Shown in pieces: positions 219-50,391 of a stretch of 64,000 bases of DNA. Source of the stretch: an uncultured Gammaproteobacteria bacterium (lineage in GTDB: Bacteria > Pseudomonadota > Gammaproteobacteria > Steroidobacterales > SZUA-146); assembly GCA_963922815.1 (NCBI GenBank), contig CAWUKD010000001.1:36631-100630 (forward strand). The letters run 5' to 3'. The position numbers and the translations under genes were made by a program. Each line of letters opens with the position of its first letter. The stretch's first letter is position 1. The notes beneath the pieces were generated by a model, which was not told where the DNA came from, did no database searches, and saw only the letters and a list, made by a program, of their open reading frames with translations.

Positions 219-2804
219 CTATCGGTGTAGCAGTACCGATACTGAGCCGGAAGAAGGGTTTGTCGCGACCAAATCAGGGCGTCCGTCGCCGTTCAGGTCA
301 CCGATTGCCACTGTGCCCTCGTCGCTCGCCGTAAAGTACGCCCCCGACCGAAACGTGCCGTCTCCGTTACCCAACAGCACAGTGAGAATCTTATTAAAAT
401 TGCCGACTGAAACGATGTCTGGAAATCCATCTGAATTCAGATCGCCGATGGATACCCAAAACGGCCCTGAATAGGTCTCGTAGGTCTGGGAAAACGACTG
501 AAACGTACCATCTCCGTGGCCCAAATTCACGATCACATTGCCGGCTCCAGCAGTGACCCGATCCAAGATGGCGTCTTCATTGAGATAGCCGACAGCAAGA
601 GCACCCGATGGGCTATTGACGTAGCCCACGTACGACCCTGATGGGGATCCGAGGGAGCCGCTGCCATTGCCTAGCAGCACTGAGAACGAAATCTCGTCCT
701 TGGTCGAGACGTTATTCGTTACCACGTCGGGAATCTCGTCACCGTTGAAATCACCCGTGGCCATTGAGCGCGGGAAGATGGTCGGGAAGTCGTAGTGTTG
801 ATTCGCGATCTCAAACGGAGCTCCAGCCTGGAGAGAACCGTCCCCAAATCCCAGAAGCACCGACACATCACGCGATTGGAGGTTTGAAGTAACGACGTCT
901 GCGATGGAATCAGAATTCATGTCTTCAATGGCTAAGGAAAGCGGAGCGTGGCCGTTCACGGTGGTCGCTAACGCTGCCTGGAATGTCCCATCGCCGTTGC
1001 CCAGGAGAACGCTGACATCATCGCTGCCGGCATTCGCCGTAACCAAATCGACGAATGAGTCCCCGTTCATGTGGGCGCTCGCAATTGAATAGGGTGCTTC
1101 TCCCATGTCCGTTGTCATCGCTACCTGAAAGGTTCCATCGCCATTACCCAGAAGCACGGAAACGTCATGGGAACTAGTATTTGCAGTGGCCAAGTCGGGA
1201 ACAGCGTCACCGTTCAGGTCCGTGATAACTACCGAGCGCGGACTGGCGCCTACAGCATATTCGGGTGCAGGCGTGGGCAGACTACCGTGGCCCTCGCCCA
1301 ACAGCACCGCTCCGGTCGACGTAACCGCGTCGACTACACCGTCACCATTCAAATCGCTGATGGCTATGTCTGGGTCAGGGAAGTTAGTACCGGTGCCACG
1401 CCCGGCATGAGGTGCCTGGGCGACGAAACTACCGTCGCCGTTGCCAAACAAGATGGCACCGCCCCCGGCAACAAGATCCGGAGCTAAGTCGCCATTTAAA
1501 TCGAAAATCTTGATGTGTCCAATAGAGTCTTCGCCATTGTCAATCACAATGGGCGCCTGAAAGCTGCTATCACCATTGTTCAGCGACACCAATATCTGGT
1601 ACTGACTAGGGCTCTGCCCAAAAATTCCAACCGTCGTTACGAGGTCTACCGCCTCATCGGCATTCAGGTCGCCGACAGCGAAGGTACGCAAACTAAGGAT
1701 GTCGCTGCCTAGCATGATCGACAACGACGGTTGAAAACTACCGTCACCGTTGCCAAGCAGTATCGACACGTCGTCAGAACCCCCATTGAGCGTCATAAGG
1801 TCAAGCGTTCTATCACCATTCATATCCCCGATAGTTATTGCGAAAGGGCCGTCCCCAGCGCCAATACTCTGGGCTGGCGCAAAACTACCGCCGCCGAATC
1901 CAAAAAGTACAGATACATCGTCGGAAGAACGATTTGCGGTGGCCAAATCCGGGATGCCATCCGCATTCAAATCACCAATGGCGATAGAGCTGGGCCTATC
2001 CCCCGCGTCGAGTTGTTCAGCCGCAAGAAAACCACCATTGCCGGTTGCGAGTAGAACGGTGATCGTATCATTAGCGCGACTAGCGGCCACGACGTCCGGA
2101 AGGTTGTCCGCGTTAACATCGCCGATTGCCACCGAATGGGCTTCGGCCCCAATGTCAAAGGTCTGTGTTTTTACAGAAAACCCGTCGCCGGTGCCTAGCC
2201 ATATCGACACGTTGCCCGAGTTTCCTTCGGCAAGCGCAATATCTGGAATGGTGTCGCCGTTCAAGTCTGCTGTATCGAGTGCATATGCTCTAGAGCCAAA
2301 TGGTATTCGCCCTCCTGGGTACATGAATTGCGGAGACTCCTGCGGCGTGGCGCAAAGGTTGTCAGCCCTACCGCTCGGACCCGGGGCCAGGAGGAAGCGC
2401 GATGTCATGATGCTAAAATCGATAAAGTTCACTGCGCCGTCGCCGTTGAAATCTGCGTCAGGGTCAGCAGTTGAGAACACAGACCCGAACAACCCAATGT
2501 CGACGAAGTTGACGATGCAATCATTATTTAAATCAGGATCGCACATGTTTCCGATGCCGTCTGCATCGGTGTCGCGTTGAAACAGGTTGAAGAGGTTTAC
2601 ACAATTGTCGCTAAGGTTAAGAGTGCCGTCGTCATCTATGTCGCCCGGAGTACGTGTCGCGAACGGAGCCGCCCACGATACGGCGGCGAACATTGTCGCC
2701 ATTAAAAGGGCACTGGTGATTAGTGTGGGGATTAACTGACGGGGCCGGTCAATCAAAGTTGTCGACCTAAGTCGGCATGCCAAGTGTGAGTGTGAGTTAT
2801 CCAT
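219..2804 (-). CDS. Secreted FG-GAP/VCBS-repeat protein, paralog A (predicted double 7-bladed beta-propeller) with N-terminal TSP3/dockerin-like Ca-binding module
   Basis: Track ORF 219..2822 starts at TTG; the ATG at 2804 is preferred and gives 861 aa, matching the paralogs. Signal-like stretch LIPTLITSALLMATMFAAVSWAAP. Module at aa ~61-157 of the track ORF: DIDDDG..DNC..QRDTDADGIGNMCDPDLNNDC..DFNGDGAVNFIDF..PGPSG. I counted 14 D-x-N-x-D loops of the type GDLNGDGxPDLV..S.DVSVLLGNGDGTFQ. Confidence 0.85.
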   Translation of the reverse strand: MDNSHSHLACRLRSTTLIDRPRQLIPTLITSALLMATMFAAVSWAAPFATRTPGDIDDDGTLNLSDNCVNLFNLFQRDTDADGIGNMCDPDLNNDCIVNFVDIGLFGSVFSTADPDADFNGDGAVNFIDFSIMTSRFLLAPGPSGRADNLCATPQESPQFMYPGGRIPFGSRAYALDTADLNGDTIPDIALAEGNSGNVSIWLGTGDGFSVKTQTFDIGAEAHSVAIGDVNADNLPDVVAASRANDTITVLLATGNGGFLAAEQLDAGDRPSSIAIGDLNADGIPDLATANRSSDDVSVLFGFGGGSFAPAQSIGAGDGPFAITIGDMNGDRTLDLMTLNGGSDDVSILLGNGDGSFQPSLSIMLGSDILSLRTFAVGDLNADEAVDLVTTVGIFGQSPSQYQILVSLNNGDSSFQAPIVIDNGEDSIGHIKIFDLNGDLAPDLVAGGGAILFGNGDGSFVAQAPHAGRGTGTNFPDPDIAISDLNGDGVVDAVTSTGAVLLGEGHGSLPTPAPEYAVGASPRSVVITDLNGDAVPDLATANTSSHDVSVLLGNGDGTFQVAMTTDMGEAPYSIASAHMNGDSFVDLVTANAGSDDVSVLLGNGDGTFQAALATTVNGHAPLSLAIEDMNSDSIADVVTSNLQSRDVSVLLGFGDGSLQAGAPFEIANQHYDFPTIFPRSMATGDFNGDEIPDVVTNNVSTKDEISFSVLLGNGSGSLGSPSGSYVGYVNSPSGALAVGYLNEDAILDRVTAGAGNVIVNLGHGDGTFQSFSQTYETYSGPFWVSIGDLNSDGFPDIVSVGNFNKILTVLLGNGDGTFRSGAYFTASDEGTVAIGDLNGDGRPDLVATNPSSGSVSVLLHR

Positions 2805-2843
2805 TTCAAATTCCGATTCCAAAATGCCCAGGGTGACTCCGGC

Positions 2844-5432
2844 TTAGCGTTGCAACAGGAGCACGAGCTCCCGTACTCCATTGTGGGTGGTGACCACATC
2901 CGGTTGATTGTCTCCATTGAGGTCTCCAACGGCGAGCTGCCCAGGCCTATCGGCGCCCATAAAGTGTGCTTTGCGAAACAGTCCATCACCAGAGCCCAAC
3001 AGCACAACGACATTGTCGTCGACCGGATTGTTGTCGATCCTATTTGTTGCCACCAAGTCCTGAACCAGGTCGCCGTTCAGGTCGGCAACCGCGATGGAAC
3101 CCAGATCAATGTCAGTGTAGGGGGTGTTTATCGTCGACGGGAAGCCGCCATCACCGTCACCAATGAACAATCTCAGGGACCCCGTCGTGTAGACGATGGC
3201 CACGTCCAAAACTTGATCGCCATCAAGATCTTCAATGGTGTAGGACTTTACCGCGAAATCTGTACTGTAAACTACAGGATCCTGGAAGCTGCCGTTGCCA
3301 ACACCCATTAATACCGAGATGACGCCAGCTCCACCCGGTCCGGAGCCATTGACCGCGATCAGATCTGGGATTGCGTCGCCATTCAGGTCCTGGATTTCCA
3401 CTCCTAGTGGTTCAATCCCGGAACCAATATCCAGTTGAGACGCAACCTGAAACTGGCCATCGCCATCACCCAAGAGTATGGAGATGTCATTGGTCAGTGT
3501 GTTCGCTGTAACAATATCGGGAAGAGCATCGTCGTTGATATCACCAATAGCTACTGACTCTGGCGACTCACCAACCAAAAATATCCTCTCAGGCTGATAA
3601 AGGCCTTCGCCAACGCCAAGAAAAACCGATACATCATTGGTGTCGATATTGGCGGCAACCAGATCTGCTATGTTGTCGGCGTTCACGTCCGCGATAGCAA
3701 CTGAGCCCGGGTCGCCTGTGCGCAGTGTAGGCAGGATGCGCTGGAACTCGCCAGCTCCGTCTCCGCGGAACACGGTTATCTTTTTGGCTGCCCTGCTGGT
3801 GGTGACCATATCAAGATTCTGATCCCCGTCGATGTCACCAAGTGTAATGGAGTCCGGTCGATTGATGTCGCTTATGGATTTCCAAGTCTGGACACCGCCG
3901 CTGAGAGTACCCGGCCACACGGCTATGGTATCGCGCAGCCGCAGCGCGCCGACGACATCGGGAATTGAATCGCCGTTCATGTAGCCCAGGGCAATGGCAA
4001 TTGACGAGTTTCTAGCACCCGTGTTAAAAACCTGGGGCGGCTCAAAACCGCCGTCGCCAATGCCCTTAGCTACCGAAACCCGCCCAAAGCTCCCCGAATC
4101 GAACGAAGTGCTTGCCATGACTAAATCCGGGATCGTGTCAGCGTTCATATCACCTATTGCCAGCCCGAATAAAAAACCGCCGCCTGGGTCCACCACAGGT
4201 GCCGGTAAAAAACTACCGTCTCCATTTCCAAGGAGAATTGAAACGTCGTTAGAGCTGCGATTTTGGGTGACGAGATCCGGCACTGAATCGCCGTTCAGAT
4301 CGGCAATTTCGACAGCCTCTGGATAGTTTCCAACACTGAAGGTTAAGGTTATCAGGAAGCCCCCTTCACCATTTCCCAATAACACCGAAACCGTATTATT
4401 CGAGTTTGCTGTGACAACGTCCAACATCGAGTCATCGTTGAGATCGGCTACGGCCACCGCGTTGGGCGAAGGCCCGACGCTGGCTAACCACGCCACCTGA
4501 AAAGTGCCGTCTCCATTTCCGATCAGAACGGATATCTCGTCCGTGTTGCGAGCGGTGGTGAACAGATCTGGAATGTTATCGCCGTTCAAATCTCCAATTG
4601 CCACAGACACTGGCTCGGGGTCAACACTGATTGCCACGGGCGCCTGAAAACCGCCGAAGCCGTTACCAAACACTATCGCCACCTCGTCGGCTTGTGCGTT
4701 AGCCGTTATGATGTCCAATATAGTATCGCCATTCAGATCGCCGATCGCCATGGCATTTGGCCGGTTCCCTACCGTATAGTTGACCGCGGTGCCTAAGCCG
4801 CCGTCGCTGTCACTCAGGAGCACGCTCAAGTTAGACGAGAACGAGTAGGTGTTAACTACATCCGGCCGACCATCGTTGTTAAAGTCACCGATCGCGACTC
4901 TATTTGGGTTGTTGCCAACTGAATACACGGTACCGGGGAACATCTCGTGCAGCGCGACGGGAACAGCCGGGCACGCGTTGTTGGCCAAACCACTCGGACC
5001 AGGAGCACCAAAAAAGCTCGTTGTCATGATACTTAGATCTAAAAAGTTGACATTGCCGTCACCGTTGAGATCCGCATCCGGGTCGAAGCCGAAAAACACC
5101 GACGTCATCATGGCCAGATCCAAAAAGTTGATCGCACAGTCGTTATTGAGGTCGGCATCACAAACATTGCCGATGCCATCGAAGTCCGAATCACGCTGTT
5201 GGAGGTTTGCGATGTTCAAGCAATTGTCGAGGGAATCGTCGATCCCGTCACCATCTAAATCTCCTGCAACCACCATTACGACCATCGCATCGTTAGTTGG
5301 GAGGGCTGATGCTGTGTGCGATAAGCCGATCAGCGAAATCAGAATCGTCATCGCGTACGCCGCAATGACAACAATAGATCGGTAACGCACGTCTGTGCCA
5401 GAAAGATAAAGCCAATGTGCGTTTGACGACAT
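2844..5432 (-). CDS. Secreted FG-GAP/VCBS-repeat protein, paralog B, same architecture
   Basis: Track ORF 2844..5531. The internal ATG at 5432 (MSSNAHW..) sits just before the hydrophobic segment IVVIAAYAMTILISLIGLSHTASA, removes the overlap with the upstream gene and gives 862 aa. Module: DLDGDG..DNC..QRDSDFDGIGNVCDADLNNDC..DLNGDGNVNFLDL..PGPSG. 14 FG-GAP loops counted. Confidence 0.85.
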   Translation of the reverse strand: MSSNAHWLYLSGTDVRYRSIVVIAAYAMTILISLIGLSHTASALPTNDAMVVMVVAGDLDGDGIDDSLDNCLNIANLQQRDSDFDGIGNVCDADLNNDCAINFLDLAMMTSVFFGFDPDADLNGDGNVNFLDLSIMTTSFFGAPGPSGLANNACPAVPVALHEMFPGTVYSVGNNPNRVAIGDFNNDGRPDVVNTYSFSSNLSVLLSDSDGGLGTAVNYTVGNRPNAMAIGDLNGDTILDIITANAQADEVAIVFGNGFGGFQAPVAISVDPEPVSVAIGDLNGDNIPDLFTTARNTDEISVLIGNGDGTFQVAWLASVGPSPNAVAVADLNDDSMLDVVTANSNNTVSVLLGNGEGGFLITLTFSVGNYPEAVEIADLNGDSVPDLVTQNRSSNDVSILLGNGDGSFLPAPVVDPGGGFLFGLAIGDMNADTIPDLVMASTSFDSGSFGRVSVAKGIGDGGFEPPQVFNTGARNSSIAIALGYMNGDSIPDVVGALRLRDTIAVWPGTLSGGVQTWKSISDINRPDSITLGDIDGDQNLDMVTTSRAAKKITVFRGDGAGEFQRILPTLRTGDPGSVAIADVNADNIADLVAANIDTNDVSVFLGVGEGLYQPERIFLVGESPESVAIGDINDDALPDIVTANTLTNDISILLGDGDGQFQVASQLDIGSGIEPLGVEIQDLNGDAIPDLIAVNGSGPGGAGVISVLMGVGNGSFQDPVVYSTDFAVKSYTIEDLDGDQVLDVAIVYTTGSLRLFIGDGDGGFPSTINTPYTDIDLGSIAVADLNGDLVQDLVATNRIDNNPVDDNVVVLLGSGDGLFRKAHFMGADRPGQLAVGDLNGDNQPDVVTTHNGVRELVLLLQR

Positions 5433-5502
5433 CCTGCCCTGTCTTAGAGATAAACAGGTCATCTTCAAGTACTCCATTCCATTCCTCCCGGCCCCGTCTC
5501 GT

Positions 5503-8085
5503 TCAGGGTTGCAGCACAACAGTGACGGCATCGTCCAGTGAATTAATGAACACCAGATCTGGACGCGAATCGCCGTTCAAATCGCCGATTGCCGGGCGAA
5601 CAGCGGACGTATCGGCAGCAAATCGAAGCGCTGCCAGAAAGTTGCCTTCACCGTCGCCAAGATAGACACTGAAAGTGCCCTCGCCGGTTAGAACAATATC
5701 TGGAATATCGTCGTCGTTTACATCCTGAATGACCGCCCCCGACGTTATATAAGGCGCGTCGTAGGTCTGAACTGTGTAGGTAAGTCCATTCCCTGTGCCC
5801 AGCGCCACAGCGTAGTGACCGTCCTCTTCCATGAAAAAATTAGTCGGGCTGGTGGCGAGCAGGTCTGGAATATTATCAGCATTAAAATCGCCAATGGCGA
5901 CAGCAAAAGGAGGATAGTTGGTGTTGGTCGGCCAACCAGCCTGAAAGCTGCCATCCCCGTTTCCCAGTAGTACCAACAAGTGGGCAATGCTGACGTTCCC
6001 CACAACCAGGTCAGCGATTTGATCCCCATTAAGGTCGCCAGTGGCCAAATCGCCCGTTCTTCCAAATCCGGCATAGTATGTTGCTGGCGAGCCGAAGCTT
6101 CCGTCGCCATTGCCGAGCATAATTGACACATAACTGTCTGAGCCCGAACTCGCCAGATCAGGAACCCCGTCGCCATCAAAATCGGATACCACTACATAGC
6201 CGCCTCCGGCCGGATAGGATTGAGCAGTTTGCATGCCACCTTCGCCATCGCCCAGAAACACCGATACGTCATTAGAGAACGCATTTGCCGTGACCACGTC
6301 CGGGATCTCGTCGCCGTTAAGATCACTAATTTTGACAGAACGTGGATCGCCACCAGTGTCGAACCACTCCTCAGGCTGGAAGCTGCTGTCGCCGTTGCCC
6401 AGCAAGACAGAGATGTCATTCGAATCCCGATTTGCCGTAACAAGATCTGGAACATCGTCACCATCAAGATCACCCATGGTGACAGATGCCGGCCGAATAC
6501 CAGTTCGGAACGATTGCGGAACAACAAAACCGCCATCGGCCCCTCTGGTTAGAATGATCAAGCTTGTGGCTGCAGCAACCACGTCAGTAATGCCGTCGCC
6601 ATTCAGGTCAGCGATGTCCACATGCCACGCTCTGTTACCGAGGTGGGCGGGATGCGCGTCCTGGAACTGGCCGTCGCCAAGTCCCAGCATAGACCAAACA
6701 TCATTGTCGCCGCCGACGATCAGATCAGGAACACCGTCGTTGTTTAATTCTCCTATCTTGATGGTACGTGAAATATCGCCCACCTCGATCGTAGGGGCCG
6801 GTTGGAAGCTCATGCCGCCGTCGCCCAGCAAGATCGTAATCGTCTCGATTCCAGGACCGGTATCAGGCTCGATGCTGGAGACCACGATGTCGAGGATTGA
6901 ATCATCGTTAAGATCACCCAGCGCCAACTGACGTAACGAACTCAAACTGGCTAATGTAATTAACATCGGCGCCTGAAAACTGCCATCGCCGTTGCCCACT
7001 AACACCGAAAAATGGTTTGAGTTAGTCTGGCTCGAGACACTTCTCAGCGTGACTAAATCCGGGATTTCGTCGCCATCAATGTCCCCAATTGTTACTGTAC
7101 CCACTCGGTCACCAGCAGGAAACGAAATCGCCGGATCAAAGTCGCTCTTACCATTTCCAAGCAATACCGACACGTTGTCGTCATTGATGTTGGCCGTTAC
7201 AATATCGGGTACGTCGTCGCCGTTGAGGTCTCCAACAGCCAGAGAAACCGGGGAGTTACCCACGGGCCTGTCAAAGGTCGTCTGGAAGTCGCCGTCGCCA
7301 GTACCAAGTAATATCGAGACATCACGTGACCCTTGATTCATCGCCACGAGATCCACAATTTCGTCACCATTCAGGTCACCGGCGAAAAGCTCCATTGTAT
7401 AGTTCCCGGCACCGAAGTATCGCGCGGGTCCAAACGAACCCGCCCCGTCGTTAAAGAATATGGCCACTGTGTCTGAGTCCAATGTCGGCGTTGCCATGTC
7501 GAGCGTACCGTCGCCGTCCAGGTCTTCGATGACTACCCACCTTGTCTGACCAACGACATCGTGCCGGTAGTTGGGGTAGAGCGCCTGGCCGTCGAGCGGT
7601 GGTATAGCGCACGCGCTGCCGGGGACGCCGCTTGGTCCGGGCACGCTATAGAAATCCCTCTTCATAATGCTAAAATCCAGGAAGTTGACCGTGCCGTCGC
7701 CGTTGAAATCTTCTTCCGGATCCGATGATGATAAAAACTCGGACGACAGTCGATCAAAATCCTCGAAGTTGATTATGCAGTCGTTGTTCAGGTCTGCATC
7801 GCAGGCGTTACCAATGCCATCTCCGTCTGTGTCCCTCTGAGCCGAATTTGCGATAAGCAGGCAGTTGTCGCTGGCATCGGCCACGCCGTCGCTATCTGTG
7901 TCGACAAGACGAGCCGATAAATTGATGTTGTGAGGCTTAGTCGCGAATTCGATGCCTTCTACAGGAGTGCTCAATAGCAAGCTCACCATTAGCGGACAGG
8001 CTAAAAACAGTAAGCTGGCTCTACGTATTTTCGACTTAACAGTAGTAAAAACGCACGTGCGACAAACATGGTCGATCGATTGCAT
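5503..8085 (-). CDS. Secreted FG-GAP/VCBS-repeat protein, paralog C, same architecture (first gene of the trio)
   Basis: Track ORF 5503..8160. The ATG at 8085 (MQSIDH..) gives 860 aa; starts at 8145 or 8160 are also possible. Signal-like KSKIRRASLLFLACPLMVSLLLSTPVEG. Module: DTDSDG..DNC..QRDTDGDGIGNACDADLNNDC..DFNGDGTVNFLDF..PGPSG. 14 FG-GAP loops counted. Confidence 0.85.
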   Translation of the reverse strand: MQSIDHVCRTCVFTTVKSKIRRASLLFLACPLMVSLLLSTPVEGIEFATKPHNINLSARLVDTDSDGVADASDNCLLIANSAQRDTDGDGIGNACDADLNNDCIINFEDFDRLSSEFLSSSDPEEDFNGDGTVNFLDFSIMKRDFYSVPGPSGVPGSACAIPPLDGQALYPNYRHDVVGQTRWVVIEDLDGDGTLDMATPTLDSDTVAIFFNDGAGSFGPARYFGAGNYTMELFAGDLNGDEIVDLVAMNQGSRDVSILLGTGDGDFQTTFDRPVGNSPVSLAVGDLNGDDVPDIVTANINDDNVSVLLGNGKSDFDPAISFPAGDRVGTVTIGDIDGDEIPDLVTLRSVSSQTNSNHFSVLVGNGDGSFQAPMLITLASLSSLRQLALGDLNDDSILDIVVSSIEPDTGPGIETITILLGDGGMSFQPAPTIEVGDISRTIKIGELNNDGVPDLIVGGDNDVWSMLGLGDGQFQDAHPAHLGNRAWHVDIADLNGDGITDVVAAATSLIILTRGADGGFVVPQSFRTGIRPASVTMGDLDGDDVPDLVTANRDSNDISVLLGNGDSSFQPEEWFDTGGDPRSVKISDLNGDEIPDVVTANAFSNDVSVFLGDGEGGMQTAQSYPAGGGYVVVSDFDGDGVPDLASSGSDSYVSIMLGNGDGSFGSPATYYAGFGRTGDLATGDLNGDQIADLVVGNVSIAHLLVLLGNGDGSFQAGWPTNTNYPPFAVAIGDFNADNIPDLLATSPTNFFMEEDGHYAVALGTGNGLTYTVQTYDAPYITSGAVIQDVNDDDIPDIVLTGEGTFSVYLGDGEGNFLAALRFAADTSAVRPAIGDLNGDSRPDLVFINSLDDAVTVVLQP

Positions 8086-8473
8086 TCTTAACTCATACGT
8101 TCTTTCGGCTTTAGTACTGCAGTGTTTCTGTAGGTGGCCTCCCATCCTGTTTGACCTCATTAGTTATCTAGCTAACTACATCTTTAGCACTATTTAGAGT
8201 GATTAATCGATAATTGAAAAGGTGGTGTCTGCTCCAAAATCAATCGTTTCAATGAGTAATCAGACGATAGTACAAGCCGAGGAAAATTCTACCATAGCGC
8301 GCCCTTCCTGGCGAACACGCCAAAATATTCCACCGGTGAGGGATACGATTGCTGCTCTAGAAACGTCATAGCCGGGAGTATTTGAAAGTTCTTACTTCGA
8401 TTCTTATTAACATAAGGTCGCGATAGGAATGCCGGTTACCAGGCACCCCTCGCAAAGATCCCAGCGTGCGCTA

Positions 8474-9565
8474 CTAACGCTCTGGGCTCCTGCCTCGGGT
8501 ATTGGCGTCAAAGCGTTGAGCCGGATAGTTGTGTAGTAAAAGAATGACTGGCGCGAACCTTTCCACAGCTTTCCGAACCGCACCCACGTCATGCGATGGC
8601 GCTGGCCTTAGTTCAGAGTAATCGGTGCGTTTAATTTCAAATTGCCCGATCAGACTGTAGAGATTGGCGCTGGATATTGCGCCAGCGACGCTGTCGCAGA
8701 ACAAGAAATTCTTTCGGCCCATGACGAACGGCCGGATCGCGTTTTCGGTAAGGTTGTTGTCGATGCGAGGTCGTCCGTCTCGTGTGTAGGTGACGAGCTT
8801 TGGCCACTGCTTATCAGCATAGTTCATGGCCTTACCCAGGGCCGATTTAGGCGGTACGACCATCAGGTGTTTATCGAGCCATTTTCTGACGTCCTTGAGC
8901 ACTGGCAATGAGCGTTGCGTTCTGATGGTGTGACGCTGCTCTGGGGTTAGGTGTTTCGCCTTGTGCTCGATGCGGTATAACAGCTGGATACGTCGCATCG
9001 CGTCTTCCGCCAGGGACACGGTTTTGTTTTTGGCTCTGGTTTCCTGGGCTTTTAAGGCCTCATCGAACTTGCGCCTGACGTGCGCCCAACACCCGAGCTG
9101 CGCGAGCTGGTTTTTGTCGCACACGGCGTTATAGCCTTCGTACCCGTCGGTCTGAAGATAGCCGGTAAAGGGGCCGAGTAAATCGACCGGCACCCTTGAG
9201 GTCCGGGACGGATCGTAGTCGTACAGGAGAATCAGACGATCCGGTGGCCGGCCGCGCTGTACCCACAAATAGCTTTGGCTTTGCGGTGATTTACCCGGTT
9301 CTCTTAAGACCTGCAGCCGGGTCTCGTCCATCGCGATGATGTCATAAGAGAGAACGGTGTCGCGCATCAGGCTAATCAGTGGCTGAACCAATATCCCGGC
9401 CTTGATCATCCAACTGGCCAGGGTCGATCGAGGCGGATCAATGTCGATACGCTTGAGCTTTTGTTCCTGCCGATACAGCGGTAAACCATCTACGTATTTG
9501 CTCACGGCCACATGGGCCAGGGTTCCGGCACTAGCCAGGCTTTTGGGAATGGGCTGCGGTGGCAA
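8474..9565 (-). mobile_element. IS66-family transposase remnant, 5'-truncated and probably non-functional
   Basis: Family-typical strings: PIPKSLASAGTLAHVAVSKYVDGLPLYRQ, IIAMDETRLQVL, YLQTDGYEGYN, LGCWAHVRRKF, NAIRPFVMGRKNFLF. The reading frame closes at a TAG near 9630, so the roughly 150-aa N-terminal zinc-finger/leucine-zipper part is missing. No IS66 orf1/orf2 lies upstream. The C-terminal ~60 aa are divergent. Terminal inverted repeats were not identified. Confidence 0.8.
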
Positions 9566-12291: not shown

Positions 12292-14469
12292 TTATGCAGA
12301 CCCGCTTTTTCTGATCAGCGCGTCTACCGCAATAGCGCCCGGATACGATGAAGCGTTCTCAGTCGAATCGTCGACTAGACTCGGCGGGGTCTGGCGTTCA
12401 TGAGCGGCTGATACGTCGGTGTCCTGCGTATTCAATCCGGCCACCGAACGCACCAGCAGCGGATTCACATCCAGCTCCAGCAAACACTCGCGGTTTGCCT
12501 GAGCGTATCGGCACACCGACTCGATGGCATCCAGAGCGCCTTCCAGATCCCCCGATTGATCACGATAGCCCGTGATCAATCGGGCAACTCTGAGTGACAG
12601 CAGCGCCGTTTTAATCTCCTCGCGAGATGCCGGCAACAGCAGCTGCACCGAATCGTCGAGCATCTCGACGTTGACCCCACCGGCACCCAGTACCAACACC
12701 TGTCCAAAGTCCTTGTCGAAGTTTACACCGACAAACAGCTCAGCCACGGCGTCGCCAATCATCGACTCGATCAACAGCTCATCGCCAAGAGTCGTCAGCT
12801 CAGTCGCGTGTTTCGAGACCTCGGCGAGCGACAGCACACCGACCCGAACGGCACCCAATTCCGTCTTGTGCGCCAGGTGCGCACCCAGCGCCTTCATGAC
12901 CACCGGAAAACCCAGGGACATGACGGCCGCTCCGGATTCTTCGGTGCCACAGCGAACCGAAGCCGGTACCGGCAGGCCAAACTCTTCGAGCGCCTGCTTG
13001 CTGGCATGCTCGTCCAGGCAATGCGTCGACTCGGTGTCAATCTCAATGTGCTCGATGGCCTCAAGGTTGCTCGCCTGCTGCTGCGCACGCCCAATCGCAT
13101 ACGCATGGTGAATCGCCTGAACGCATTCTTTCAAGCCCTGCATGGGCGCTACGTTCAGTGTGCACAGTCGCGCGCGAGCCGACTCCGGCAGATTCTCAGG
13201 CAGTGACGAGACCAGCGCCACTCGCGTACCGGTAGCCTGCGACGCTGCGCACAGTGCCCGCTCGGCCGTCTGCCACAGCGTTACGTCGTATTGATCGGGC
13301 GGCGGATAGTCCAGAATCAGCAGCGCACAGTCGAGCGGCTCCTTTAATAACGCCGTAAACACCTGAGTCAGCACCGGCTCATCGCCCCAGACGTAGGTGT
13401 GGTAATCAAGCGGATTTGACACGTGCACGCGCTCACCCAGCAGGTTCGACAGCGAACTGACGGTAGTGGACGAGAGCTCTGGAAACCTGAGTCCCTCCGC
13501 CTCCGCCAGATCAGCAAGATGAGAGGCCTCGCCGCCCGAACAGCTCATTGAGGCTATGTGAGGCTTCTCGTTACCATCGCTCCGATTCGGCGTGATGGCT
13601 CCGCCCAGCGATACAAACTTTAAAGTCTCCAAAAGCTCAGTCAGAGAATAACAGCGCGCGACTCCGAATCGCTCAAACATGACGCTGACCAGGTCATCCG
13701 GATTGGCGAGCGACCGCGTATGACTCAGGGCCATCTCGGCACCCAGCTCCGAGCTTCCTGTTTTAATCGCTATCAGCGGCACGCCCTGGCGGAGTGCGCG
13801 CAGAGCAGCGGCCGTGAATTCGGGGACATTAGCGATCCCTTCCAGGTGCATGCCTATGGCGGTTACCCTGGGGTCGTCGAGCATCGCGTGAAGGTAGTCG
13901 TGAATCTGAAGCTGCGCGTTGTTACCCATGGCCACGACGTAGCTGAAGGCAAGCGCTCGCTGCTGAAACGTCACGTTGATGCCAATGTTCCCGCTTTGCA
14001 TCAGCAGCGCAGGGCCTCGTTCGGTCTGCTCGCCGCCGAAATGATCCGGCCAAAGTGCAACCCCGTCCAGGTAATTCACAAAGCCGTGGCAGTTGGGGCC
14101 GACCAGCGGCATCTCTCCTGCCGCGTTTAGCAACGCGCTCTGAAGGCGCTTGCCACTCTCGCCGGCTTCGGCAAATCCGGACGCGTAGCAGACCACACCG
14201 CCCGCACCTTTCTGCTTAAGCTGTTCAACGACCTCAACCGTGCGTTCTGGCGAAACGCCAATAAAGCACGCATCGGGCACTTCAGGCAGCGCATCAATGT
14301 TGGGCACGCACGTGACGCCGGCAAGCTCGTCTCGCGTGGGGTGTACGGCGTAAAGCCTGCCACCAAAGCCAATGCGGTGGCACTGAGTGGCGACCGTTGC
14401 CGCCGACTGACCGCCAATCACCGCAATGGACTTAGGTGACAGGAGGCGCGACAGATCGTTGCACGACAC
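12292..14469 (-). CDS. NDP-forming acyl-CoA synthetase (CoA-binding + succinyl-CoA-ligase-like + ATP-grasp domains); candidate betaine-CoA ligase of the operon
   Basis: N-terminus LLSPKSIAVIGGQSA..RLYAVHP..PDACFIGVSPERTVEVVEQL..GAGGVVCYASGFAE is typical of the ADP-forming acetyl-CoA synthetase family. 725 aa. Last gene of the carnitine cluster. Confidence 0.8.
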   Translation of the reverse strand: MSCNDLSRLLSPKSIAVIGGQSAATVATQCHRIGFGGRLYAVHPTRDELAGVTCVPNIDALPEVPDACFIGVSPERTVEVVEQLKQKGAGGVVCYASGFAEAGESGKRLQSALLNAAGEMPLVGPNCHGFVNYLDGVALWPDHFGGEQTERGPALLMQSGNIGINVTFQQRALAFSYVVAMGNNAQLQIHDYLHAMLDDPRVTAIGMHLEGIANVPEFTAAALRALRQGVPLIAIKTGSSELGAEMALSHTRSLANPDDLVSVMFERFGVARCYSLTELLETLKFVSLGGAITPNRSDGNEKPHIASMSCSGGEASHLADLAEAEGLRFPELSSTTVSSLSNLLGERVHVSNPLDYHTYVWGDEPVLTQVFTALLKEPLDCALLILDYPPPDQYDVTLWQTAERALCAASQATGTRVALVSSLPENLPESARARLCTLNVAPMQGLKECVQAIHHAYAIGRAQQQASNLEAIEHIEIDTESTHCLDEHASKQALEEFGLPVPASVRCGTEESGAAVMSLGFPVVMKALGAHLAHKTELGAVRVGVLSLAEVSKHATELTTLGDELLIESMIGDAVAELFVGVNFDKDFGQVLVLGAGGVNVEMLDDSVQLLLPASREEIKTALLSLRVARLITGYRDQSGDLEGALDAIESVCRYAQANRECLLELDVNPLLVRSVAGLNTQDTDVSAAHERQTPPSLVDDSTENASSYPGAIAVDALIRKSGSA

Positions 14470-14535
14470 CGGCGTTAAACCCCGTAACCCGTCAGGGCAT
14501 CACCGTATCGTACCGACACCGTCAACATGGAGCGA

Positions 14536-15333
14536 CTACTTGCCACGCCAGACCGGGTCTCTCTTCTCGGCAAAAGCCTTGAACCCTTCCAGGTTGTCTT
14601 CACTGTTGTACAGCGTATCCACCGTCGCGAGCTGACTCTTGGTGATACTGTTGAGCGCATCCTGAAACTTCATGTTTTCGGCTTCGCGCACCACTTCCTT
14701 GATTGCCGCGTAAACGAGCGGCGGCCCGCCAGCCAGCAGTCGCGCCATGTCCCAGGCTTTGTCGCTAAGTTCGTCGGCCGGCACCACGTGGTTCACGAAA
14801 CCCCATCGGTGCGCTTCGTCGGCATCCAGCCAGCGACCCGTCAACAGCATTTCCATCGCGATGTGATACGGAATGCGTTTGGGCAGCTTGATGGACGCTG
14901 CGTCAGCCAGCGTTCCCGAACGTATTTCAGGCAGCGCGAACGTGGCGTGACTCGCGCTGAGTATAATGTCAGTCGACAGGGCAAGCTCCAGACCTCCGCC
15001 ACAGCAAATGCCGTTCACCGCACAAATCACCGGCTTGTTAAAATTACCCAGCTCCTGAAGGCCACCAAAACCACCCACACCGTAGTCGCCGTCTACGGCG
15101 TCGCCATCGGCGGCCGCCTTCAAATCCCAGCCGGGGCAGAAAAACTTTTCACCGGTAGCGGTAACAATGGCTACCTTGAGTTCGGGATCGTCGCGAAACT
15201 CTCTGAAGACCTGCCCCATAATGCGGCTGGTCGCCAGATCGATGGCATTGGCCTTCGGTCGATCGAGCACAACTTCGAGTACGCCGCCGTCCGTGCGCGT
15301 GCGAATGGGGCCGGTGTCATTTTGCATAGTCAT
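14536..15333 (-). CDS. Carnitinyl-CoA dehydratase / crotonobetainyl-CoA hydratase-like enoyl-CoA hydratase (CaiD-like)
   Basis: Near-collinear with E. coli CaiD as recalled: LDRPKANAID, GEKFF..GWDLKAAA, NKPVI.AVNG, FALPE, FAEKRDPVWRGK at the C-terminus. Confidence 0.85.
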   Translation of the reverse strand: MTMQNDTGPIRTRTDGGVLEVVLDRPKANAIDLATSRIMGQVFREFRDDPELKVAIVTATGEKFFCPGWDLKAAADGDAVDGDYGVGGFGGLQELGNFNKPVICAVNGICCGGGLELALSTDIILSASHATFALPEIRSGTLADAASIKLPKRIPYHIAMEMLLTGRWLDADEAHRWGFVNHVVPADELSDKAWDMARLLAGGPPLVYAAIKEVVREAENMKFQDALNSITKSQLATVDTLYNSEDNLEGFKAFAEKRDPVWRGK

Positions 15334-15360
15334 AGCAGATTCCGATTCAATTAAAGTGTT

Positions 15361-16521
15361 CTAGGTTTCGTAAGGCCGCAGCAGTTCGCGGCTGATAATG
15401 TGTCGTTGTATTTCCGAGGTGCCGTCCCAAATCCGCTCGACTCGCGCGTCACGCCAGAAACGCTCAAGCGGCAGGTCCTGCATCAGCCCCATGCCGCCAA
15501 AAATCTGCACGGCTTCGTCAGTAACCCGGGCCAGCATCTCGGTCGAAAACAGCTTGGCGCTGGCAATAGCACGATTCGCAGGCTCACCCTGTTCAAGCTG
15601 CCACGCGGCGGCCAGCGTCAGATAGTCGGCGGCGTCAATCGACGTCACCATGTCCGCGAGCTTGAACGACACGCCCTGAAACTTGCCAATGGCCTGACCA
15701 AACTGCTTGCGCTCGGCGGCGTAGGCAATCGACAGATCCAGCGCGCGACGGGCACGGCCCACGCACATGGCGGCCACCGTAAGGCGGGTTCCGGCCAGCC
15801 AGTTGTTAGCAAGCTGGAACCCCTGGTGAACCTCTCCGAGCATCTGGCGTTTATGCACCCGGCAGTCGCTGAAACTCAGCACGCAGTTGTGATACCCGCG
15901 ATGCGACACCGAGTGATAGCCGGGCTGAATCTCGAAGCCGGGCGTTCCGCGGTCAACCAAAAAGCAACTGATCTTCTTTTTGGGACCTTTCGGCGTTTGC
16001 TCTTCGCCGGTGGCAACAAAAACAATGACAAAATCGGCGATGTCGGCGTGGCTAATGAAATGCTTGGTGCCGTTAATGATCCAGTCATCGCCGTCCTGTT
16101 TGGCCATGCACTGCATGCCGCGCAGGTCGGACCCGGCACCCGGCTCGGTCATCGCCAGCGCATCGTATTTCTCGCCGCGTACAGCCGGCAGTAAATAACG
16201 TTCGCGTTGCTCGCCTTCACACGCCGCCAGAATGCCGGACGGTCGACCGAAGAAAACGCTGAGCGCCATGGACGCCCGCCCCAGCTCACGCTCTATCAAA
16301 GTAAAATCCAGCTCGCCGAGGCCACCGCCACCGCATTCTTCAGGCATGTTTGCTGCGAAGAATCCCAGATCACGGCATTTCTGCGCGATCTCTTCGCCGA
16401 GCTCACGCGGTACGACACCGGTACGATCAACTTCATCTTCGTGCGGATAGATTTCCTGTTCGACAAACTTGCGAACGGTATCCACCAGCATGTGCTGTTC
16501 GTCACTCAATCCAAAATGCAT
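15361..16521 (-). CDS. Acyl-CoA dehydrogenase (candidate gamma-butyrobetainyl-CoA dehydrogenase)
   Basis: ACAD family: MHFGLSDEQHMLVDTVRKFVEQEI, ALAMTEPGAGSD, QFGQAIGKFQGV, IWDGTSEIQR. The ATG at 16521 has a GGAGAG upstream. The track start is 16569. Confidence 0.85.
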   Translation of the reverse strand: MHFGLSDEQHMLVDTVRKFVEQEIYPHEDEVDRTGVVPRELGEEIAQKCRDLGFFAANMPEECGGGGLGELDFTLIERELGRASMALSVFFGRPSGILAACEGEQRERYLLPAVRGEKYDALAMTEPGAGSDLRGMQCMAKQDGDDWIINGTKHFISHADIADFVIVFVATGEEQTPKGPKKKISCFLVDRGTPGFEIQPGYHSVSHRGYHNCVLSFSDCRVHKRQMLGEVHQGFQLANNWLAGTRLTVAAMCVGRARRALDLSIAYAAERKQFGQAIGKFQGVSFKLADMVTSIDAADYLTLAAAWQLEQGEPANRAIASAKLFSTEMLARVTDEAVQIFGGMGLMQDLPLERFWRDARVERIWDGTSEIQRHIISRELLRPYET

Positions 16522-16659
16522 GACCTGCTCTCCGCCCCGCCGGGCTTGTCTGTTGTTATCACCTTCCACGCAGTTCGTGGACGCACTACCCTTGACCTTG
16601 CGAATATGAATTGCCGTCGGAACACACGTGAGACACAGCCGCCGGCATCATTAACCATG

Positions 16660-19052: not shown

Positions 19053-19091
19053 CCTGGTCAGACAATCGGTAAATTTTTTGTTGGGTTAAAA

Positions 19092-40300: not shown

Positions 40301-40514
40301 ATCCTGATGCTACAGACCGCTCAAGACGGCCATACATTTCGTGCACGGAAAATAAAGTGTCCAAAGACACATCGTCAGGCTCGACGTAATTACATTGCGG
40401 ACAAAAACGCACGAAGGAGTCGTTGCGCTCCCTCTTTAGCGGAATTTTTTACGCGCCCGCAAGCTGAGATCAAATCGGCGCAGTCCTTACTTTAGCGTCG
40501 GTCGTTCACTTGAG

Positions 40515-47934: not shown

Positions 47935-50391
47935 TCAGAGCAAGCCGCTGGGACCCGGCGGTAACAAAAAGAATTCGCCGAGCAGTTCAAAGTCGAGAAA
48001 ATCCACCTTGCCGTCGCCGTTGAAGTCGGCGTCCTCATCATCAGACTGAAAGCGCTGTGCAAACAAAGCTATATCGACAAAGTTGGTGACCTGATCATCA
48101 TTAAGGTCCGTATCGCAAGCGTTCCCGAATCCATCCGCATTGCTGTCTCGCTGATCGCTATTGGCCCGATCCAGACAGTTGTCCGCCGTATTGGCAACAC
48201 CATCAAGATCGCTATCGGCCTGCGCCGCTACTCCGAGGGTTAGTCGCGTTGGGCTCAGACCCACGGCATCCGGCACCAGCAACACACTGCCGTAATAAGG
48301 CCCATCCTGTGCGCTTGCCATATCGAACACAACGTCGATAGCTTGTTCCTCGCCGGCGTCGAGCGTAAAACTTTGCGGAATAGCCGAAACGATTGGGCCC
48401 GCCTGATCGGTCTCCACCACTACCGTCCAGCTAGCAGGCGCCACGGCCTTGACCGTGCGAGACCAGGAGCATTCGTTTACGCAGTTCAGATCAACCAGTC
48501 CGGCCAAATTCATGCGCGACGGCTGACCGCCCTGAGCGGGGTTCGCCGCTTCAAACCCGGCGATCGTTTCGTTCAGTAATAACCCGGCCTGAACCGCAGC
48601 CGCCACGTCGATGCGACCGCCGCCGTAATCAAAGGGAGTGGTCGGATCATCTTCAAATTGCTCGTCCAATGGACCCACACCGGTGGTCATCAACGCTGAC
48701 AGCACTTCAGCGTCGGACCAATCAGGCCTGGCCGATTTAATCAGGGCTATCGCACCGCCACCGGGCCCCGCTGCCGGACCGGTCGCCACCTTGAACGACG
48801 CTTCCCCGGTTGGAACAATGACATCAATCGACGGTACGGCAACCGAAGGGGCCAGATAGTCAAGCCCCAGCACCGGGCCCCGGCTGCTCGCGCCGGAAAC
48901 ACGATCGGCCAGCTCCGGATCAATGGGCGCGTCGTTAAGCGTGATAGAGGCTGCATGCCCGCTTCCGCTGGCAAGCCAGGTCCGCAGTAAAGTAGAGTCT
49001 GCGGCATTCAGATGAATACCGGGAAACGGGAAGAAATCCGCGTGTACAGAATCAAAGCCGCCGACCACATTAGCGAGCACCATGCCACCGGCACCGGAAT
49101 CCAGTGCGTTCTGGGCTTTTTGTATGCGTGCAATCTGACCGCGATCACAGACCAGAATTTCACCGTTAAGCGTGCCAGGAGGAAACGGCTCAAGGCACTG
49201 CGCAGGGTCAGCAACCGGCACATCGAGACTACCGGCGTACACAATGTTCGCGGTAATTGGTCCGCCGAGAGAACCGCCCAACAAATCACCGGGAGGTGGC
49301 GTATCACCGCCGCTAAAGTTTGTCAGCACCTTGAAATTATTGGTTCGGCCATGGGTGCTCGAGATAAACGTTGCCGTCCACGGAGCGGCCAGACTGAGGC
49401 CCAGCGTTCCGGGTTCAGGTCCGCCGTTGCCAGTTATGTATGCCAGGCTGACGCCGTTGGCCCTGAGTGAAAGACCCGCCAGCCCGTAGAGGCCGTCCCA
49501 GGCCGTACTGATTGACGAGCCGATAAAATGCACGAGCACGTCAACGTCATCGTTGATGGCCTGCTCGAATGCGCTTAGCACACTGGTTGCTGCGCAGCTG
49601 GATTCACACGTTCGATACACGATCAGATTGGCATGAGGTGCAACCCCGGTAACGATCGGAAGCCCAATATTGCCAAGACTGGTCTCGCTCAACCGGTTGC
49701 CCGCAGCCTGACTGGCCGCCGAGTTGCTGGCACCGTCAAGCTCTTCCGAGGTCAGCTGTGAATCATTGCTGAACGTGTAGCGCCCGATCAGCTTGCTGTT
49801 GCACAGGACTTCCGGTGCGGTAAGGCACTCTCCCAGATACACGCCGTCGCCCAGCGGATTGGTGTGCGTGTAACCGTCATCGCCGGTAGCCGCAAAGGCA
49901 GGATGACTGCCGCTGATTCCGGTGCCGGTAATACCGATAACAACACCTTCTCCAAGGTGTCCACTATCATTCGTTGCCGAGCCGTCCCAGACTTCGTTAG
50001 CACGAATCAAATCCACGACAGGATCACCGCTACCGCCCGCACCATTGCGTTCCACCGTGGCCGTCAGTTCGGTCAATTCACGGGGCGATAGAGACGGAGT
50101 CAGCAGTTCGAACACTTCGTCTTTGATAACGGCTTGCACGCCTGGATGGCGACTAAGCCTGGACGCCTCGACGTCGTCCATCAGCGTCGAAAAACCATTG
50201 ATGACGTGTCGGTACTCCCGCACGACTTTTAGTTCGCGTCCAAGATCGGCGTTAAGCTGTGATCGCACCGACGCCGCATTTGCCGACGATTCAAGATGGA
50301 CGATGTAGCTGGCTTCCTCCGCCTGAACGGCACACGTCCCGGCAAGAGCCAACACGCAGGCTACGATGGTGTTTCTTAATGACTGAATCAT
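47935..50391 (-). CDS. Subtilase (peptidase S8, pyrolysin/plant-type with I9 propeptide and PA insert) homolog with Asp/His/Ser all substituted, plus a C-terminal TSP3/dockerin-like module; predicted pseudo-protease
   Basis: Signal peptide ..AGTCAVQA. I9-like YIVHL..VVREYRHVINGFS. Asp box reads VVIGITGTGI (expected ..DTG/DSG..). His box reads DGASNSAASQAAGN (expected DGHGTHTAS.AAGN). Ser box reads VATGPAAGPGGGAIALIK (expected SGTSMA.PHV.G). The oxyanion Asn is kept (ITGNGGP). PA-like ILVCDRGQIARIQK. The last 93 aa match the module of the FG-GAP trio. Confidence 0.85.
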   Translation of the reverse strand: MIQSLRNTIVACVLALAGTCAVQAEEASYIVHLESSANAASVRSQLNADLGRELKVVREYRHVINGFSTLMDDVEASRLSRHPGVQAVIKDEVFELLTPSLSPRELTELTATVERNGAGGSGDPVVDLIRANEVWDGSATNDSGHLGEGVVIGITGTGISGSHPAFAATGDDGYTHTNPLGDGVYLGECLTAPEVLCNSKLIGRYTFSNDSQLTSEELDGASNSAASQAAGNRLSETSLGNIGLPIVTGVAPHANLIVYRTCESSCAATSVLSAFEQAINDDVDVLVHFIGSSISTAWDGLYGLAGLSLRANGVSLAYITGNGGPEPGTLGLSLAAPWTATFISSTHGRTNNFKVLTNFSGGDTPPPGDLLGGSLGGPITANIVYAGSLDVPVADPAQCLEPFPPGTLNGEILVCDRGQIARIQKAQNALDSGAGGMVLANVVGGFDSVHADFFPFPGIHLNAADSTLLRTWLASGSGHAASITLNDAPIDPELADRVSGASSRGPVLGLDYLAPSVAVPSIDVIVPTGEASFKVATGPAAGPGGGAIALIKSARPDWSDAEVLSALMTTGVGPLDEQFEDDPTTPFDYGGGRIDVAAAVQAGLLLNETIAGFEAANPAQGGQPSRMNLAGLVDLNCVNECSWSRTVKAVAPASWTVVVETDQAGPIVSAIPQSFTLDAGEEQAIDVVFDMASAQDGPYYGSVLLVPDAVGLSPTRLTLGVAAQADSDLDGVANTADNCLDRANSDQRDSNADGFGNACDTDLNDDQVTNFVDIALFAQRFQSDDEDADFNGDGKVDFLDFELLGEFFLLPPGPSGLL

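Follow-up and report, generated by a model that had tools for sequence, protein, structure and literature searches.

What are the three long repeat proteins encoded side by side at the left end of this stretch of DNA, and what might they do for the bacterium that carries them? The stretch, called the window hereafter, comprises 64,000 nucleotides of contig CAWUKD010000001.1 (positions 36,631 to 100,630 of the forward strand) from an uncultured member of the Gammaproteobacteria, and its sequence is public both as ENA ERZ23491891 scaffold_1 and as a 116-kb NCBI contig. Three adjacent, intact open reading frames (ORFs) lie there on the minus strand at 219-2822, 2844-5531, and 5503-8160. The genes are named A, B, and C by increasing coordinate, and the order of transcription is C, B, A. 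In the interpretation favored here, which is given a probability of roughly 0.6, they encode three old paralogs: secreted, calcium-stabilized double-propeller binding proteins that are tethered through a tag composed of a thrombospondin type 3 (TSP3) repeat and a dockerin, that are probably co-transcribed, and that belong to an accessory region of the genome. The structural identity of the proteins is well supported; their function, meaning diversified ligand faces and docking, we infer.

Calcium blades and the predicted double propeller

The translations of all three genes share one layout, in which a hydrophobic N-terminus leads into a module of about 100 residues rich in Asp and Cys, and the remainder is a long series of repeats with the pattern AIGDLNGDxxPDLVT...VSVLLGNGDGxF. 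The Pfam family FG-GAP_3 (PF13517) matches A, B, and C with E = 3.8e-64, 3.2e-73, and 2.2e-71 (213.6, 242.7, and 236.8 bits against a cut-off of 26.9), and FG-GAP (PF01839) matches them with E = 4e-28, 1.6e-28, and 5e-25 (97.2, 98.5, and 87.3 bits against 22.1). Since these scores far exceed the curated cut-offs, chance can be set aside, and the trio are FG-GAP/VCBS repeat proteins. A motif scan finds exactly 14 Dx[ND]xD calcium-loop anchors per protein. Thus, an earlier, sequence-only reading of the locus was correct in seeing three consecutive minus-strand FG-GAP ORFs with 14 repeats each, although its repeat unit of about 55-60 residues was too long, the measured period being 49 residues (mode; range 45-57). 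When all 42 blades are aligned, the calcium loop contains 0 indels, and variation in blade length is confined to the loop between strands 2 and 3 and to the connection from strand 4 to strand 1.

An AlphaFold2 model of protein B was built from a 40-sequence alignment consisting of the trio and 37 homologs picked from 7,893 database matches. The model has a mean predicted local distance difference test score (pLDDT) of 83.5 and a predicted template modeling score (pTM) of 0.77. Residues 160-862 average about 93, and all low-confidence residues fall in the signal peptide and the N-terminal module, the latter being covered by only three rows of the alignment. Strand assignment with DSSP gives about 56 strands, equivalent to 14 four-stranded blades. 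The last repeat contributes three strands, and an extra strand at residues 168-171 precedes blade 1. Propellers usually employ a 'velcro' arrangement, wherein an N-terminal strand completes the C-terminal blade, and the strand list suggests that strand 168-171 pairs with blade 14 of protein B in this manner.

Comparison of the same model with the PDB by Foldseek retrieved DDB1, SF3B3, the tandem WD domains of Utp21, and Elp2 (E of about 1e-15 to 1e-17 over about 760-890 columns). The best of these matches are proteins of two or three seven-bladed propellers, and their template modeling (TM) scores of about 0.3 would be expected if a single ring superposes and the rings are arranged differently relative to one another. 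A precedent exists in the WRAP case, where 14 blades fold as two seven-bladed propellers (PMC9218822). Overall, the 14 confident blades, the pTM, and the multi-propeller matches make it likely that the blades fold as two seven-bladed propellers, as had been proposed from the repeat count; for protein B, the modeled one, the blades are supported directly and the closure of the rings indirectly.

A search of PDB sequences with the alignment profile reached the calcium blades of integrin alpha-V and alpha-IIb, CRTAC1, the YenB/TcdB2 propeller, and a secreted esterase. With the single sequence of protein B, only COMP was found, through the N-terminal module, and integrins were reached only with the profile. 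The calcium-blade concept is itself established (PMC3123361). The integrin matches (E of about 1e-8 to 1e-9) indicate homologous blades, with a calcium hairpin between strands 1 and 2 in both. However, integrin alpha has 7 blades and carries its calcium hairpins in blades 4-7, whereas each trio protein has 14 blades, all with predicted calcium sites. The trio proteins, being bacterial and apparently secreted, also lack thigh and calf domains, a transmembrane segment, and a beta-subunit partner. In integrin alpha propellers, ligands are bound on the face built by the 2-3 and 4-1 loops, opposite the one that carries the calcium hairpins. Because indels in the trio occur only in those two loops, the presumed binding face seems to vary among the paralogs, which by this analogy would retain the scaffold while changing what it presents.

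The blade architecture is by no means confined to this locus. At least 7,893 proteins match protein B at E <= 1e-10 (8,000 candidates scored), and most cover about 80% of the query, corresponding to the propeller part. Bacterial FG-GAP/VCBS proteins (PF13517, PF01839) are like the trio in their repeat, in the Dx[ND]xDG...D calcium loop, and in their 14-repeat module, and the consensus of the 40-sequence alignment contains 14 repeats as well. A closed propeller requires a fixed blade number. For this reason, and because the homolog consensus also has 14, the conservation of 14 repeats is not special to the trio; the earlier suggestion that it argues for selection on the architecture was over-read, given that the same module appears in the consensus of the 37 outside homologs. 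Clusters of FG-GAP paralogs occur elsewhere, with five genes at one locus (L085) and three at another (L086). The VCBS/FG-GAP group has been described as one of three great propeller hubs, over-represented in bacteria and typically tied to carbohydrate recognition (PMC9218822). The best FG-GAP homologs also include proteins of about 1,100-1,480 residues filed under the names of bdelloid rotifers, Rotaria and Adineta (P0006, P0018, P0031, P0038, P0044, P0057, and P0083), which could be due to horizontal transfer into rotifers or to bacterial contamination of the assemblies.

Several features of the proteins point to export. Each N-terminus combines a basic n-region, a hydrophobic core of at least 15 residues (mean Kyte-Doolittle 2.1-2.6), and an AXA-like site, and putative cleavage sites fall between SWA and AP, ASA and LP, and VEG and IE as placed heuristically by eye and hydropathy. 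A homolog whose N-terminal module is like that of the trio (L002) carries a textbook signal peptide, MKRLTYTAGALLCALAASTAFA followed after the cleavage point by QAG, immediately before the module. The mature trio proteins are extremely acidic, with 106-129 Asp plus Glu against 23-28 Lys plus Arg, and all four of their Cys residues are confined to the N-terminal module. An extracellular or periplasmic location fits because of this composition, the restriction of Cys to the module, and the signal-like N-termini. Secretion of all three proteins is therefore judged likely, in keeping with what had been suspected from the N-termini.

Care must be taken with the lengths of these proteins, which hinge on the choice of start codon. 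The sizes of 861, 862, and 860 residues first assigned to them are reproduced with ATGs at 2804, 5432, and 8085. In gene B, however, a strong ribosome-binding site, GGGAGG, precedes ATG 5477 by 6 nt, and this start yields 877 residues and agrees with the public gene call. Genes A and B contain in-frame TTG/GTG codons closer to the hydrophobic core that are possible starts, and the public gene calls for the trio (827, 877, and 880 residues) show that callers disagree. Counting from the first Asp of the module to the stop avoids this dependence, and the resulting 807, 805, and 799 residues are a sturdier measure of the near-equal sizes of the proteins than 860-862. With the preferred starts, C and B are 25 nt apart and B and A 21-39 nt, closer than the approximately 40-70 nt estimated before, and no terminator-like hairpin is present in either gap. 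An operon is plausible because of these short gaps and the lack of such hairpins, and the trio probably forms a single operon.

Identity between pairs of the three proteins is 38-42% overall; the propellers by themselves give 35-46% and the N-terminal module about 57%. Blade-by-blade orthology is barely detectable (diagonal mean scores of 66-78 versus 63-65 off the diagonal), and no near-identical DNA repeats were found that link the three genes. For these reasons the duplication behind the trio is old, which agrees with the earlier view of the genes as diverged paralogs and not recent duplicates. A neighbor-joining tree of the trio and the 37 outside homologs groups A with C at 95% bootstrap and all three together at 48%. 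The sequence itself reveals neither a recent triplication of a whole gene nor an internal 7+7 duplication, the diagonal being weak and blade comparisons within the trio giving no signal between blade i and blade i+7.

The TSP3-dockerin tag and its other carriers

The N-terminal module, about 100 residues long and about 16% Asp, corresponds to the acidic, Cys-containing segment of about 95 residues reported from the sequence at first; it has 56 positions that are invariant across the trio, including four Cys. The modules of A and B are 55-57% identical to that of C. The first half bears the motif DxDxDGxxDxxDNCxxxxNxxQRDxDxDGIGNxCD, a canonical TSP3 repeat, and among solved structures it matches COMP (3fby; E = 1.7e-29, about 50% local identity) and thrombospondin-2 (E = 1.2e-25) by sequence. 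The second half is a duplicated unit of calcium loop plus helix, with sequence matches to dockerins such as 2y3n_B (E = 3.1e-5) and others. Pfam Dockerin_1 (PF00404) matches gene C at 29.2 bits against a gathering cut-off of 22.9. The NCBIfam model for the 'GC-type dockerin' (NF041540) was also tried and rejected, since its scores of 11.7-17.6 bits fall short of the cut-off of 29.

An AlphaFold2 model of the module, made from an 80-sequence alignment, has a pLDDT of 90.2 and places helices at residues 63-71 and 91-99, one after each calcium loop. By Foldseek, the dockerin 2y3n_B superposes with a root mean square deviation (rmsd) of 1.1 Å over 52 columns (target-normalized TM 0.79), and several other dockerins come next. 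The TSP3 region of COMP superposes at 1.3 Å over 38 columns with 50% identity, and the range for COMP and thrombospondin-2 is 1.3-3.6 Å. Judged by the Dockerin_1 score in C, the COMP sequence match, and the modeled dockerin fold, the module is one TSP3 repeat fused to a dockerin, which bears out its provisional assignment to these two families. It is probably stapled by two disulfides.

This composite differs from its relatives in several ways. Thrombospondins and COMP have a 'wire' of 7-13 repeats, whereas the module has a single TSP3 unit. With type I dockerins (PF00404) it shares the duplicated calcium loop and helix, a position that is C-terminal in most cases, and its presence on many different secreted proteins within one genome. 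Unlike the cellulosomal dockerin, it is fused to a TSP3 repeat, is predicted to be disulfide-stapled, is N-terminal in the trio, and occurs in a Gram-negative host with no cellulosome context. Dockerin PF00404 is also present in at least 13 of the top 120 matches to protein B; compared with such dockerin-bearing FG-GAP proteins, the dockerin of the trio is preceded by a TSP3 repeat and N-terminal. None of the 7,893 matches covers more than 89% of protein B, and the order of signal, TSP3-dockerin, and 14 blades was not seen outside this contig. As far as the compared sequences tell, both parts and their combination are already known, and the exact order is seen only here.

The module does not appear on propellers only. 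A hidden Markov model (HMM) of the module was scanned over the six-frame ORFs of the window and of collected loci, which revealed a fourth copy within the window. It forms the last 97 residues, ending PGPSGLL-stop, of a subtilase (47935-50391, minus strand) with Inhibitor_I9, Peptidase_S8, and PA domains. In this copy the third and fourth Cys are both absent, and a Cys3-Cys4 disulfide in the other copies fits because the two have been lost together. Across one genome per species, another scan yielded 422 confirmed matches, and the results on position and passengers come from the best 80 of these 422 loci. Those 80 belong mainly to metagenome-assembled genomes (MAGs) of uncultured Gammaproteobacteria and Pseudomonadota, some with several loci each (SGMAG-48 with eight, J06555_7 with seven, and SRR18550245_binner23 with five). 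The tag mostly lies within 15 residues of the stop, with occasional N-terminal copies (L002, L007, L051, and the trio) and internal ones. Its passengers are mutually unrelated: Exo_endo_phos, an NHL propeller, an SBBP propeller, RHS repeats with Ig domains, and unknowns. In cellulosomal organisms, dockerins are likewise found on many different secreted proteins. Searching the tag profile against 1.84 billion representatives gave 82,222 matches at E <= 0.001, mostly long multi-TSP3 proteins, a figure that gauges the abundance of TSP3 and not of the composite tag.

In 46 related loci, the search for a recurrent tag-less neighbor that might be a candidate partner of the tag gave only antisense shadow ORFs and passenger families. 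The window contains neither a scaffoldin nor a carbohydrate-active enzyme and thus gives no sign of a cellulosome-type assembly; the tag was found on a protease, on propellers, on a protein of the nuclease/phosphatase family, and on an RHS protein. Earlier work has described dockerins outside cellulosomes, according to a passage in PMC6487960 that cites Peer et al. 2009. One tentative idea, rather doubtful at present, is that the tag defines a non-cellulosomal docking system, undescribed so far, in this lineage of uncultured Gammaproteobacteria. Unrelated secreted proteins (the three double propellers, the S8 protease, the nuclease/phosphatase-family protein, NHL/SBBP propellers, and RHS proteins) would be addressed in a calcium-dependent manner to one cohesin-like or cell-surface receptor, with the double propellers as its ligand-binding subunits. 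Long contigs also carry many tag matches of very small size, for example P0136 (100 residues, on a 1.7-Mb contig), P0200 (110 residues), and P0183 (212 residues, on a 3.2-Mb contig). These may be free-standing tags, with little beyond a signal peptide and the TSP3-dockerin module.

Genomic setting

The features are collected in Table 1. Both ends of the region around the trio are marked by remnants of IS66-family transposase genes, which share a 235-nt inverted stretch with 74% complementarity. The earlier reading had noted neither these remnants nor the module copy on the S8 protease. A composite transposon with two intact copies of the insertion sequence (IS) is not present, both transposase genes being fragments. 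Because both copies are fragmentary, no active composite transposon exists here.

Table 1. Positions of the three genes, their predicted domains, and related features (window coordinates, except where L001 is given)
Feature	Position	Strand	Description
Gene A	219..2804	-	861 aa from ATG 2804; alternative TTG starts; signal-like N-terminus, TSP3-dockerin module, 14 FG-GAP/VCBS blades
TSP3 + dockerin module, gene A	2361..2651	-	132 bits against module HMM
14 calcium blades, gene A	222..2312	-	Period about 49 aa; final repeat without fourth strand
Gene B	2844..5477	-	877 aa from ATG 5477, GGGAGG before it; identical to public protein P0001
TSP3 + dockerin module, gene B	4977..5279	-	146 bits against module HMM
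14 calcium blades, gene B	2847..4940	-	pLDDT about 93 in model; about 56 beta-strands
Gene C	5503..8085	-	860 aa from ATG 8085; upstream in-frame ATGs 8145, 8160; architecture as in A and B
TSP3 + dockerin module, gene C	7618..7914	-	139 bits against module HMM; Dockerin_1 29.2 bits; AlphaFold2 pLDDT 90.2
14 calcium blades, gene C	5506..7578	-	Motif scan and blade alignment
IS66-family transposase remnant	8474..9565	-	363 aa; DDE domain only, without IS66 C-terminal element; directly upstream of C
Second IS66 remnant	L001 15533-15934	inverted	133 aa; DDE tail and IS66_C; just past window position 1
Fourth TSP3-dockerin module	47941..48231	-	C-terminal end of subtilase, gene 47935-50391; 116 bits; 52% identical to module of A

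The next gene upstream of the IS remnant encodes malate synthase G, which is 78-80% identical to proteins of two MAGs (Gammaproteobacteria, Pseudomonadota). The order ATP-sulfurylase, TauD, BKACE, 3HCDH, ACAD, ECH, CoA-ligase, and malate synthase is the same in the window and in both MAGs (L082 and L084). After malate synthase, both MAGs carry a TonB receptor and methylcitrate-cycle genes instead of IS66 and the trio. Because IS66 remnants flank the trio and synteny ends after malate synthase G, the trio is, by this comparison of gene orders, in an IS-bounded and apparently lineage-specific variable region. Its GC content is 53-54%, versus 59% in the adjacent metabolic genes. A scan of the neighboring genes found no enzyme, transporter, or regulator gene next to the trio, just as had been stated before.

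Some other parts of the surroundings deserve brief mention. A conserved minus-strand cluster at 12292-20210, placed upstream of malate synthase G and syntenic in both MAGs, encodes a TauD-family dioxygenase, BKACE, a 3-hydroxyacyl-CoA dehydrogenase-thioesterase fusion, an acyl-CoA dehydrogenase, an enoyl-CoA hydratase, and an ADP-forming CoA ligase, and its gene content resembles that of a pathway that breaks down a small substrate, either a quaternary amine or a beta-keto acid. Past the left edge of the window, by 2-7 kb (L001 17339-22508), a tyrosine recombinase gene is followed by a gene for a 650-residue LamG/CBM96 protein that has a pilin-like hydrophobic N-terminus and whose sequence is broken by an assembly gap. 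The same segment holds three pseudopilin-like genes, two with an N-methylation motif and one with a long TSP3-like run of Asp-rich repeats. A SAM_alpha (SAM-II) riboswitch (40415-40491, minus strand; 44.8 bits) lies between a sirohaem synthase gene and a gene for a LysR-type regulator (39323-40300), beside cysH-cysI-cysJ. Gammaproteobacteria are unusual hosts for this riboswitch class, and the downstream gene here is unusual for it as well. The riboswitch match had hinted at an alphaproteobacterial source, an origin that was rejected in view of the 78-80% identity of malate synthase G to the proteins of the two MAGs. Finally, a gene for WS/DGAT (wax ester synthase / diacylglycerol acyltransferase) adjoins an alpha/beta hydrolase gene at 51604-53373 on the minus strand, which suggests that this gammaproteobacterium may store neutral lipids.

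Weighing the possible roles of the trio

The favored interpretation can be set out as a chain of steps. Each protein would be exported by the Sec pathway as an extremely acidic polypeptide with cysteine only in its tag. The tag, about 100 residues placed after the signal peptide, would bind calcium through a TSP3 repeat and a dockerin-type pair of loop-helix sites. The 14 calcium blades would most likely form two interlocked seven-bladed beta-propellers, with blade 14 completed by a strand that precedes blade 1 and stands in for its missing fourth strand. The propellers might then serve as non-catalytic binding platforms for carbohydrate or protein ligands, and the three old paralogs would probably offer different ligand faces. 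The tag probably tethers them, in a calcium-dependent manner, to a surface partner, cohesin-like or of another kind, whose gene lies elsewhere, and the three genes would probably constitute one operon in an accessory, horizontally mobile stretch.

A number of observations weigh against this interpretation. The 7+7 split is an indirect reading of the strand list and the fold matches. The signal peptides of the trio were judged solely by eye and hydropathy, and with ATG starts their n-regions are unusually long (19-27 residues, and longer with upstream starts). Among the Pfam families named for these proteins beforehand, FG-GAP, as well as FG-GAP_3, and, in gene C, Dockerin_1 gave matches, but TSP_3 (PF02412) reached 21.6 bits in B and 20.1 bits in C, below its gathering cut-off of 25, and Dockerin_1 did not attain E < 0.01 in A or B alone. 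No cohesin domain is present among the 47 ORFs scanned in the 64-kb window and the 7 kb beyond it. Monophyly of the trio has the 48% bootstrap value given above. Also, the top PDB profile match is to an enzyme, the 'secreted esterase' 8w20 (E = 1.2e-13), and the VCBS/FG-GAP hub includes enzymes, the RGL11 lyases (PMC9218822). Each of four competing explanations draws on some evidence of this kind, though less than the favored one does.

According to the first of these, the propellers are themselves enzymes, polysaccharide lyases of the VCBS/RGL11 type or esterases, which the tag holds on the cell surface as cellulosomal enzymes are held. Besides the esterase match and the propeller hub shared with RGL11 lyases, other carriers of the tag are enzymes, as exemplified by the S8 protease in the window and the Exo_endo_phos protein in a relative. 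However, the esterase match covers only about 100 residues, and matches to solved enzymes in general extend over generic blades only. Moreover, no catalytic-family HMM match was found in any of the three proteins, and all 14 blades adhere to the ordinary calcium-blade consensus and show no additional conserved residues of a pocket. An enzymatic role is thus unlikely.

Adhesins provide another model, in that the trio could be accessories of a type IV pilus or pseudopilus system about 3-7 kb past the window edge, comparable to PilY1, which is counted among calcium-blade propellers (PMC3123361). Downstream genes there have N-terminal methylation motifs, and they include the LamG/CBM96 protein with its pilin-like N-terminus and the pseudopilin with TSP3-like Asp-rich repeats. 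Nonetheless, the pilin genes run opposite to the trio, they are set apart from it by an IS66 remnant, by orphan ORFs, and by a tyrosine recombinase, and the trio proteins have neither a pilin-like N-terminus nor a PilY1/PilC domain match, which makes the connection distinctly improbable. A role in a polymorphic toxin or self-recognition system, as for propellers linked to VCBS/RHS, is more improbable still. RHS/YD repeats do occur in several FG-GAP homologs (P0020, P0022, P0071, P0072, and P0096), Tc-toxin B propellers match the profile, and VCBS proteins have been suggested to act in self-recognition (PMC9218822), yet no RHS, toxin, or immunity domain exists in the trio, nor does any adjoining gene encode one.

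That the trio is decaying or functionless IS-borne cargo, whose repeats persist only through recent origin, is hardly credible: truncated IS66 copies flank it where synteny breaks, and its GC content departs from that of the adjacent metabolic genes, but all three 2.6-kb ORFs are intact, no near-identical DNA links them, and long-term purifying selection is indicated because paralogs diverged to 38-42% identity have lost none of their 14 blades, their calcium loops, or the four cysteines of the tag.

For the favored interpretation of the trio as binding proteins, the best functional analogy is with Bap1 and RbmC, the FG-GAP adhesins of the Vibrio cholerae biofilm matrix (PMC3161981). They are like the trio in being secreted, in having FG-GAP repeats and an EF-hand calcium site, and in the matrix or surface adhesin role that the analogy would imply (PMC3161981). 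In contrast, Bap1 and RbmC each contain only one propeller, into which a beta-prism lectin domain is inserted, whereas Pfam searches reveal no beta-prism or StcE-like domain in the trio. The likeness concerns function and domains, with no close sequence relationship shown.

There are several lessons to be drawn from this locus. The conserved architecture of 14 repeats characterizes a very large family as a whole and does not set this locus apart. For three unnamed metagenomic proteins, the result assigns domains, identifying them as probable secreted FG-GAP/VCBS double propellers with a TSP3-dockerin tag. The lead most worth following is this tag and its partner, since the module of about 100 residues is present in several copies per genome and is attached to unrelated passengers. 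Finding the partner would show how these Gram-negative bacteria organize part of their exoproteome.

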